A stretch of DNA of 64,000 nt, from the UHGV virus genome UHGV-0026213; one strand, given 5' to 3'. Positions 46,918 to 48,398 of the stretch are shown one piece after another. This DNA is from a virus. Position 1 is the first letter of the stretch. Each line of letters starts with the position of its first letter. A model generated the notes under the pieces. That model was not told the DNA's origin and did not search any database. It saw only the letters and a list, made by a program, of their open reading frames with translations. Made by a program: the position numbers and the translations under genes.

Positions 46918-47739
46918 ATGTCCGAACCACAATTACTGCGTTCCGTATTAAAGAAGATCAAAAGCCAGGGTGAAGACAATCAAGCTTTGGCATTAACGCT
47001 GGGTTATCAACCTGGGCGAAATAATCCTAATGGATACGTTAACGCGTCAAACATCGTGCTTACTCCTGATGAGCGCTTTGTTTATGTCCTATACCTTCGT
47101 CGTTTAGGCTACGTTTGTGCGTTACCCGAAAAACTCCCTTTTACCGATGGTATCAACCATCTTAACCTTTACTCTAACGGTCGTACTACCGTAGGGAAAA
47201 TGATCAGTAACTTCTACGCGCAACCTAACGGTGCGAAATTCGACACAATTCACGGTCAGTTTTTAACGTTAGAAGGCTACTATCATTATTTAAGGATCGT
47301 AGACTATCTGTTCTACAAAGGCTACGGAATAAACGCTTTGGGTCGTTTGGAAACTGAATATCCTGACATCCGTTTATTACGCACCCTGACTGGGGCTGAA
47401 TGTATACAACGCGGTCGGCGATTAAAGGCGAGCATTTACGGGGGCACGGATTATCGGCCTGGCGAGTTTAGCGATTACGCGAACGGTGCATTTCAAAACG
47501 CATTACTGCGTAAACTCCGACTCTTGAAGTTTGACGGAAGCTGCTTAGGTAATGTGTTATCGTACTGTCATTCGATGGGATTACCGTTCTTGCATTACTA
47601 CGTTATGAACGGCCGGGTTATTACACCACCCCATTCGGAATGGCTTCCTAATCTGGTGGTTTCTATTGTAGAAAACATCGATTTTAACGACACAACGTTC
47701 GACATTACGAGCGTCAGTGAAAGTATGGGATTAATCTAA
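46918..47739 (+). CDS. NADAR (DUF1768/YbiA)-like protein, divergent
   Basis: Start at MSEPQ (AAGAGG RBS). MISNFYAQPNGAKFDTIHGQFLTLEGYYHYLRI aligns with YbiA FSNFAAWPIKVDGKTWPTSEHYFQAQKF (recalled). GAECIQRGRRLK aligns with PMVAARMGRDRSK. The distal D..WG motif was not found. Confidence 0.35.
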   Translation: MSEPQLLRSVLKKIKSQGEDNQALALTLGYQPGRNNPNGYVNASNIVLTPDERFVYVLYLRRLGYVCALPEKLPFTDGINHLNLYSNGRTTVGKMISNFYAQPNGAKFDTIHGQFLTLEGYYHYLRIVDYLFYKGYGINALGRLETEYPDIRLLRTLTGAECIQRGRRLKASIYGGTDYRPGEFSDYANGAFQNALLRKLRLLKFDGSCLGNVLSYCHSMGLPFLHYYVMNGRVITPPHSEWLPNLVVSIVENIDFNDTTFDITSVSESMGLI

Positions 47740-48398
47740 TGGGATTATTCGATACCCTTGCGCAATTGGAAAAAGCGCAGGAAGAAGAGGTTATTCGCGT
47801 TGCGGGCGAATCCATTAAACGCGAAGTGGAAAAGGAATATTGCGTCTGGGTTAAACCTACGCAAGCGGGATGGGATTGGCTGCACGCACAGTCCACTAAG
47901 ATGTTCATGGACATTCTCATGCCGATAGAAGGTGGGCGTCGCCGTATCCGTATTAAAGAAGACGGTACAGCACAGCTAACGCTTAAGCGTAAATTCCTGG
48001 ACGGAAAGGTTGAAGAGAATTCGGATATCGGGATTAGTTCTGCACTCTCTTTTTACAAGGACGGTTATTTGGCGCACCTGGTGAAACGTATTCACTTAGA
48101 ACCGGGTGAATTAGCCGATAAGGGTGCTAAGCATTGGGATATTGATATTTTCACGATCACCACCGGACACCCCGCAATTGAAGTTTCGGGTGACTTTAAC
48201 GATCTCCTCACTGAGATGCGTAGCAGTACCAGCGTCGGTGACTGGGTGAAAGTTGAACTGGAAGTCGAACGTTACGAGATTGCGGATGTTCTGTCTGTGA
48301 TTCCGTTTGAGTTTGACGGCCATATTCCGGCTACGCCAAAAGATCCTGAAGACCAAGAATATCTTCGTGATTACTGGGATTCAGTTACCCGCATGTAA
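47739..48398 (+). CDS. CYTH-like (triphosphate tunnel metalloenzyme-like) protein, tentative
   Basis: TAATG coupling to the upstream gene. The pattern REVEKEYCVWV ... RRRIRIKEDGTAQLTLKRK ... KHWDIDIF ... WVKVELEVERYE resembles the CYTH strand pattern (ExExK ... R.R ... lT.K ... D.f ... E.E), but the N-terminal motif is offset by one residue. Confidence 0.3.
   Translation: MGLFDTLAQLEKAQEEEVIRVAGESIKREVEKEYCVWVKPTQAGWDWLHAQSTKMFMDILMPIEGGRRRIRIKEDGTAQLTLKRKFLDGKVEENSDIGISSALSFYKDGYLAHLVKRIHLEPGELADKGAKHWDIDIFTITTGHPAIEVSGDFNDLLTEMRSSTSVGDWVKVELEVERYEIADVLSVIPFEFDGHIPATPKDPEDQEYLRDYWDSVTRM

Follow-up and report, generated by a model that had tools for sequence, protein, structure and literature searches.

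We analysed a stretch of 64,000 nucleotides from UHGV virus genome UHGV-0026213 (the window) and found that two adjoining open reading frames (ORFs) on its plus strand, ORF A and ORF B, resemble enzymes of two different superfamilies. With moderate confidence, we favor a reading in which the two products are separate enzymes, ORF A being a NADAR-type N-glycosidase and ORF B a triphosphate-tunnel (TTM) enzyme that is trimmed and packaged into the phage head. ORF A (46918-47739; ATG at 46918, TAA at 47737-47739; 273 residues) is a divergent protein of the NADAR superfamily and most probably belongs, with T4 gp30.3/AdfN, to the His-type phage clade (phrog_652), in which it would be new and architecturally distinct. 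ORF B (47739-48398; ATG at 47739, stop at 48396-48398; 219 residues) is an orphan by sequence with a CYTH/TTM fold; it is best placed in the tunnel-fold superfamily as a divergent member with a probable TTM-like mode of action, and is not a demonstrated member of the CYTH family. We infer the enzymatic activities and the substrates of both products, and likewise any cooperation between them.

Protein homologues and conserved synteny indicate that the window derives from an SPN3US/Asesino-like nucleus-forming jumbo phage, while a megablast search with 8 kb revealed no near DNA relative among phage records. Homologues of both proteins are found in nucleus-forming chimalliviruses, namely the SPN3US-like Salmonella phages and the Asesino-like Erwinia jumbo phages, with 43-47% identity to ORF A and 56-59% to ORF B. 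In SPN3US the orthologues of ORF A and ORF B are gp224 and gp225, both annotated as hypothetical, and in Asesino they are gp246 and gp247.

The two genes had been singled out in an earlier note, made from the letters of the window alone, as a translationally coupled NADAR-like and CYTH-like pair. Direct reading of the sequence bore out both ORFs, their lengths, the one-base TAATG overlap of the ORF A stop with the ORF B start (in ...ATCTAATGGG) and every motif that had been quoted. In ORF A these are ISNFYAQP...GQFLTLEGYYHYLRI at residues 96-127 and GAECIQRGRRLK at residues 159-170; in ORF B they are EVEKEY (29-34), RRRIRIKEDGTAQLTLKRK (67-85), HWDIDIF (132-138) and VKVELEVERYE (170-180). Family alignments showed that the quoted motifs are conserved columns of two protein families, which is more than chance resemblance. 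Both fold calls of the note also proved right. In structural comparisons the ORF A model matched solely NADAR structures, namely YbiA, the ADP-ribose-bound P. nicotianae NADAR and G. lovleyi DarG1, and has the YbiA-like alpha+beta fold, and the ORF B model matched CYTH/TTM enzymes and has their antiparallel beta-barrel tunnel fold. The Pfam NADAR and CYTH profiles, which the note had suggested as a check, matched neither protein.

The link between ORF A and the phage NADARs is seen at the level of protein families. The phrog_652 profile is matched by both ORF A (5.5e-67) and T4 gp30.3 (9.2e-51). When the ORF A family was compared by hhalign with a YbiA-family alignment, which also took in part of the P. 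nicotianae NADAR, the two were joined over YbiA residues 15-109 with a probability of 89.7% and an E value of 1.8e-6; comparison with an eight-member gp30.3-family alignment gave 90.0% and 1.6e-6 over 80 columns. The positive control, gp30.3 against YbiA, gave 97.6%. These alignments superpose E119 of ORF A on E48 of YbiA and E36 of T4 gp30.3, R126 on K55 of YbiA and K43 of gp30.3, and G166-R167 on G78-R79 of YbiA and on the arginine of the gp30.3 G-R. ORF A has the catalytic Glu followed by a basic residue at +7 that is E43/K50 in the P. nicotianae NADAR (PnNADAR), as well as the G-R arginine that is R79 there. Across 31 ORF A-family sequences, E119, G166, R167 and H226-Y-Y are invariant. The corresponding codons lie at 47272-47274 (E119), 47293-47295 (R126), 47413-47418 (G166-R167) and 47593-47595 (H226), all on the plus strand and within a NADAR core that the invariant residues and hhalign place at approximately residues 74-251 (47137-47670). 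Against Pfam PF08719, the short relative GAP32_342 reached an E value of 0.016 and 15.9 bits (cut-off 35.1).

These residues are known to matter in characterized NADARs. E43, K50 and R79 of the P. nicotianae enzyme contact ADP-ribose, and the E. coli C7 NADAR needs the equivalents of E43 and K50, its K95R variant retaining activity in vitro (PMC11543638). T4 gp30.3 is AdfN, a DNA ADP-ribosylglycohydrolase in vitro, through which T-even phages escape DarTG1; its E36A and K43A variants gave only partial rescue (PMC11825919). In phage NADARs of the gp30.3 type, His occupies the last-strand position that is Glu/Asp in other NADARs (PMC11125620, PMC11825919), and a last-strand His is likewise present in ORF A, where H226 is invariant, the gp30.3 family having an invariant L-x-H-S.

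ORF A is not a single domain of about 150 residues. It has inserts and a further 73 residues at its N-terminus (residues 1-73, 46918-47136, plus strand), an extension that is absent from T4 gp30.3 and from the relatives of about 150-190 residues; some other relatives are 330-358 residues long. We can only guess that the extension serves in nucleic-acid binding or localisation. Both this N-terminal domain and the long-form insert YGGTxYRPGxFS are found only where ORF B is present. The short relatives (150-190 residues, without the extension) come from Ackermannviridae, GAP32-like, Vibrio and Cobetia phages and a Pseudomonas phage, and in Kuttervirus, Miltonvirus, Vibrio and Cobetia phages they adjoin genes of replication or nucleotide metabolism. 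At position 126 the long forms have Arg and the short forms P0077-P0082 have Lys; this +7 position is otherwise variable in short relatives, with Leu, Ala or Glu in those of GAP32, Vibrio and Kevin.

Among known systems close to ORF A is T4 gp30.3/AdfN, with which it shares the match to phrog_652, the NADAR fold, the SNF...LEG(F/Y) motif with its catalytic Glu and basic +7 residue, the G-R, the last-strand His and the lack of DxxWG. It differs from gp30.3 in length (273 against 152 residues), in its 73-residue N-terminal domain and internal inserts, in having Arg instead of Lys at +7 and a DG-x-NH-x-N-x-YS motif of its own, in not matching PF08010 and in that its gene belongs to an operon of structural genes in a phage that forms a nucleus. 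The equivalents of E43/E88, K50/K95 and R79 in the DarG1-type NADARs (E. coli C7; Geobacter lovleyi, 8BAT) and in the P. nicotianae NADAR (8BAU) are kept in ORF A. An N-terminal extension is common to ORF A and the DarT1-associated NADARs, the two not being homologous by sequence. Unlike the DarG1-type proteins, ORF A has no DarT partner and has His for Asp/Glu in the last strand; a Pfam scan of 49 further ORFs of the window, three very large ones aside, detected neither an ADP-ribosyltransferase (ART) domain nor any other related to ADP-ribose. E. coli YbiA (2B3W), an N-glycosidase of riboflavin intermediates, has a Glu-type last strand and DxxWG, both of which ORF A lacks, and a part in housekeeping metabolism like that of YbiA is unlikely in a phage.

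Several observations weigh against ORF A being an active NADAR. Sequence-profile searches of Pfam, NCBIfam and the PDB returned no match for it, and the first two none for 31 members of its family. PF08719 was not matched at E <=10 by ORF A or by 31 members of its family, and PF08010 (Phage_30_3) was not matched by ORF A, its relatives staying under the cut-off at 2.9e-4 to 0.24. The +7 residue of ORF A is Arg and not Lys. Neither ORF A, as the earlier note had accurately cautioned, nor its family has DxxWG (D130/W133 of PnNADAR), though this worry is resolved by the active T4 gp30.3 family, which is also without the motif. MAFFT sets H226 one position off the T4 His, their equivalence being likely nevertheless. 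The gene sits between a tail gene and a head gene, unlike the short relatives, which belong to early/replication modules. T4 AdfN itself depends on a further T-even phage factor (PMC11825919). Finally, the DNA of nucleus-forming phages is largely protected by shielding.

The earlier note had further placed a macrodomain near 25 kb, and this was confirmed. The product of 25037-25597 (plus strand) is a DarG-type macrodomain protein that scores 26.5 bits with Pfam Macro (cut-off 22) and 2.3e-35 with NCBIfam antitoxin_DarG over the macrodomain part. It is probably the orthologue of chimallivirus AdfM (Asesino gp217). Chimallivirus macrodomain proteins of this type, including Asesino gp217, were reported in 2026 to be nuclear anti-DarT2 factors and named AdfM, and the name AdfN is applied in that paper to T4-like phages only (PMC13309987). 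The DarG-like macrodomain and the phrog_652 match that ORF A has in common with T4 gp30.3/AdfN strengthen the proposal of the note that the phage may encode erasers of ADP-ribose on both thymine and guanine, which is plausible by homology.

For ORF B, the evidence lies in the predicted structure and in the pattern of conservation. Foldseek against the BFVD viral models matched ORF B to phage CYTH proteins at a probability of 1.00, the best matches being A0A1L7N0R6, A0A0A8J9A2 and A0A0K2QRC3 from Ralstonia phages RP12, RSL2 and RSF1, which we take to be phiKZ-related jumbo phages; BLAST found no gp225 homologue in PhiKZ-type phages. The family is small. An exhaustive profile search retrieved 28 representatives among 1.84 billion proteins, and two homologues of ORF B bear the name 'CYTH domain-containing protein' in UniRef and JGI. 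In a separate observation, the metagenomic protein P0087 (400 residues) combines an ORF B homologue with an N-terminal domain of 180 residues that matches phrog_10766, either as a true fusion or because the two were called as one.

In a set of 58 ORF B sequences, which includes matches down to E ~1e-4, twelve residues are at least 97% conserved: E31, E33, R69, R71, T81, K83, E92, R117, D136, K171, E173 and E175. N94 joins these charged and polar residues at a level of at least 85%, which is also reached by Y34, L48, W133, V170, L174, V176, P189, F190 and the initiator Met. The conserved charged residues occupy alternating positions of predicted strands, and they would point into the tunnel. 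Motif by motif, the set matches the ladders of YgiF (ExE, R-x-R, T-x-K, R, D, ExE), with a basic ladder formed by R69, R71, K83, R117 and K171 and the further acidic residues D136, E173 and E175. The putative mature TTM domain comprises residues 25-219 (47811-48395, plus strand). The CYTH enzymes BH2851 (2GFG), PH1012, YgiF (5A61), NeuTTM (3TYP) and CyaB (2FJT) share with ORF B the ExE of the first strand, the R-x-R, T-x-K and R ladders and the ExE of the last barrel strand. ORF B differs from them in showing no significant profile similarity, in lacking the ExExK lysine, in belonging to a tiny family, in having a cleavable propeptide and, by SPN3US orthology, in being packaged in the capsid.

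Four points count against this view of ORF B. Pfam and NCBIfam gave no match for 36 family members or for distant homologues, and PDB sequence searches were likewise empty. In hhalign, the ORF B family against YgiF and ThTPase reached a probability of 0.5%, which is not significant. The ExExK signature is incomplete, and here too the caveat of the earlier note was accurate: the offset motif reads E-x-E-K and leaves the canonical Lys position unfilled. E31-x-E33 is invariant and E29 at least 90% conserved, the Lys position is taken by C35 (or by E33 in the other register), and K32 points to the other side of the strand. Lastly, location in the head is established solely for the SPN3US orthologue gp225.

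The source for that location is a mass-spectrometric study of virions and tailless heads of SPN3US (Scheuch et al. 2023, PMC10052503). In this work gp225 was a low-abundance head protein to which no function was assigned, with a 24-residue propeptide cut by the prohead protease gp245 at ARE-24, and gp224 was absent from the virion table (PMC10052503). ORF B is 58% identical to gp225, of equal length, and lies at the same place 3' of the gp224 orthologue. It also has the same A-x-E-24 site: V-A-R-E24/S25 of SPN3US aligns with V-A-G-E24/S25 of the window, which predicts a propeptide of residues 1-24 (47739-47810, plus strand). Across 36 ORF B sequences, A22 is at least 90% conserved and E24 and S25 are invariant. 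The gene for the gp245 homologue, the prohead protease, is located outside the window. Residues 1-20 of the ORF B model have low confidence (pLDDT 53-55). After cleavage the ExE strand would begin six residues from the new N-terminus, similar to YgiF, in which it begins at residue 4. Because the A-x-E site is conserved and SPN3US gp225 is processed in the head, ORF B is most likely capsid cargo. Its ejection with the DNA may be supposed from remarks of the SPN3US authors on head proteins in general. The SPN3US study gave gp225 neither fold nor function (PMC10052503), and the TTM assignment and the tunnel residues are added by the present analysis.

A precedent for such cargo exists in phage T4, where Alt and the internal proteins lose an N-terminal piece by prohead-protease cleavage after Glu, are carried in the head at low copy number and are delivered with the DNA. 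ORF B differs from Alt in being a triphosphate-tunnel enzyme and not an ADP-ribosyltransferase, and in that its ejection is inferred. The combination of head packaging, protease trimming and a tunnel fold was not found described in the literature we searched, and to our knowledge no capsid-delivered triphosphate-tunnel enzyme has been described in phages.

The overall interpretation in the earlier note is supported in part: the fold calls held, and the proposal that the two genes form a coupled nucleotide/ADP-ribose processing pair has little support, the signs of coupling being synteny and an ordinary overlap. In such a pair the two proteins would perform a two-step pathway on one nucleotide-derived substrate: the triphosphatase would convert a nucleoside triphosphate (NTP)-like molecule or an ADP-ribose derivative whose N-glycosidic bond the NADAR then cleaves, or an AdfN-type NADAR would need a phosphohydrolase partner, which would fit the requirement of T4 AdfN for a T-even factor. 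Wherever ORF B occurs, a long-form ORF A adjoins it; both are present in 34 Erwinia phage records, the gap being 1 nucleotide at locus L074, and the stop and start overlap in the window. Moreover, the ORF A-like gene of Ackermannviridae is overlapped by a gene for a non-homologous NTP pyrophosphatase (MazG-like, phrog_1247, 7.5e-38), and in Kassivere a MazG-like gene lies about 1 kb from the ORF A-like gene. However, gp225 of SPN3US is a head protein and no gp224 was detected in the virions, and 16 of the 52 same-strand neighbor pairs of the window overlap or are at most 3 nucleotides apart. The genomes with the pair all fall within a single syntenic clade, which makes the adjacency of ORF A and ORF B an inherited feature. 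Unrelated genes flank the short ORF A relatives of GAP32, of Vibrio and Cobetia phages and of a 182-kb metagenomic phage, and T4 gp30.2 has no detectable similarity to ORF B or MazG. We therefore consider a functional pair quite unlikely.

The remaining alternatives keep the proteins apart and concern what each of them does. ORF A might act on RNA or on a soluble ADP-ribose derivative, such as mRNA bases or ADP-ribose-based immune signals, instead of DNA, because the genome is shielded in the phage nucleus and AdfM already covers DNA there. Three reports state that NADARs also reverse cytidine ADP-ribosylation and that ADP-ribosylation of RNA bases is reversible (PMC12945103, PMC11833690, PMC13036486), comparative genomics predicted that phage NADARs mainly target soluble ADP-ribose derivatives (PMC9503650), the +7 position is not conserved in the short relatives and the ORF A gene lies outside the replication module. 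We nevertheless regard this substrate as unlikely, since all phage NADARs assayed to date act on DNA and release ADP-ribose linked to guanine (PMC11825919, PMC11125620) and DarT2 reaches chimallivirus DNA despite the nucleus (PMC13309987). Little credence is due to the notion that ORF A is no enzyme at all and acts, as a chaperone, inhibitor or immunity factor, to hold ORF B inactive or to assist its loading into proheads. The order of the genes, with ORF A upstream and overlapping as an antitoxin precedes its toxin, would suit such a role, as would the K-to-R change, the loss of DxxWG and the restriction of the N-terminal domain and the YGGTxYRPGxFS insert to phages with ORF B; yet E119, R167 and H226 are invariant and common to short homologues from phages without ORF B, and a K-to-R change leaves the in vitro activity of the E. 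coli C7 NADAR intact (PMC11543638). ORF B, in turn, could be a non-catalytic structural or scaffolding component of the head built on a TTM-like barrel, as the absence of an assigned function for head protein gp225 and the missing ExExK lysine might suggest. We hold this to be improbable: its most widely conserved residues are charged and alternate on strands, and are not those of a hydrophobic core or an interface, and low abundance argues against a role in the lattice.

Three ideas raised by the arrangement of the genes were rejected. The TAATG overlap is no sign of functional coupling, tight spacing being common in the window. A rule that ORF A-like genes adjoin triphosphatases is true of the MazG-like genes of Ackermannviridae and fails in GAP32, Vibrio and Cobetia phages and at locus L073. 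T4 gp30.2, whose gene is overlapped by 30.3, was dismissed as a relative of ORF B or MazG, no similarity and no PDB or Pfam match being found. We also observed that in T4 (L010, 7475-8766, minus strand) adfN (30.3) overlaps the start of 30.2 (phrog_420), and that the N-terminus of gp30.2, ILTDIDGV, resembles motif I of HAD phosphatases, with no Pfam or PDB match in support; gp30.2 may bear on the T-even factor needed by AdfN. In Salmonella phage GEC_vB_GOT (L005, 2962-4022) and Serratia phage Kevin (L008, 2974-4010) a short NADAR gene overlaps the start of a MazG-like gene, the products of which match phrog_1247 at 7.5e-38 and 1.2e-19, respectively, which makes a second, non-homologous case of a triphosphatase-NADAR neighborhood.

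ORF A and ORF B are the last two genes of a plus-strand unit that spans 44243-48398. The upstream genes (44243-46907, plus strand) are homologues of SPN3US gp221, gp222 and gp223, as indicated by their ORFs, by synteny with SPN3US and Asesino and by PHROG matches; in SPN3US, gp223 is a tail protein ('Tail' in Table S2; PMC10052503). Ten nucleotides separate the stop of the upstream 433-residue ORF (46907) from the start of ORF A, and a Shine-Dalgarno-like AAGAGG (46906-46911, plus strand) can be read 6 nucleotides 5' of its ATG. Five nucleotides 3' of the ORF B stop lies an intrinsic-terminator-like hairpin (delimited as 48403-48430 or 48403-48440, plus strand) with a 12-bp stem, six G-C pairs and a T-run, and it marks the end of the transcription unit. 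As the hairpin directly follows ORF B and the gap before ORF A is only 10 nucleotides, ORF A and ORF B close a unit that starts near 44243.

Exact copies of both proteins are present on 27-40 contigs, the longest of about 225 kb, including assemblies of Salmonella, E. coli and Shigella isolates, and the jumbo phage carrying ORF A and ORF B is recurrent in Enterobacteriaceae sequencing data. Elsewhere in the window, the thymidylate synthase (50541-52076, plus strand) has 511 residues, against about 338 in SPN3US and Asesino. Its Pfam match extends over residues 2-511 on a profile of 266 positions, which points to a large in-frame insertion, and our guess is that this is a homing-endonuclease or DNA-binding module.

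In the mechanism that we propose, ORF A would remove ADP-ribose from a nucleobase of phage nucleic acid, the precedent being DarT1-modified guanine, and would thereby complement the AdfM-type macrodomain encoded at 25.0 kb. ORF B would be made with its 24-residue propeptide, enter the prohead, be trimmed after A-x-E24 and remain in the head at low copy number, to be released with the DNA into the next host, where it would cleave a triphosphate-bearing substrate. We would give only a slim chance to two bolder proposals. In the first, ORF B is delivered along with the genome and the virion RNA polymerase packaged beside it, and attacks a triphosphate end or a triphosphate signal as infection begins; it could then be an RNA 5'-triphosphatase for early phage transcripts or host RNAs, as a bacterial-virus counterpart of the TTM triphosphatases in poxvirus and giant-virus virions, or a destroyer of a triphosphate-bearing immune nucleotide of the host. 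In the second, phosphohydrolases encoded beside AdfN-type NADARs, possibly the CYTH protein here, the MazG-like protein in Ackermannviridae and gp30.2 in T4, are the factor that potentiates AdfN.

If ORF A is active, SPN3US-like phages would be armed against both known DarT chemistries, with a NADAR for guanine and AdfM for thymine, which would build on the recent finding that enclosure in a phage nucleus is by itself no protection from DNA ADP-ribosylation. ORF A would then also add to the His-type NADARs a second and highly divergent example, one with an extra domain of its own, and could help to explain why AdfN needs a further factor. For the head protein gp225, our analysis of ORF B provides a fold and a candidate active site, and a tunnel enzyme delivered by the capsid, if true, would be a new kind of injected effector.

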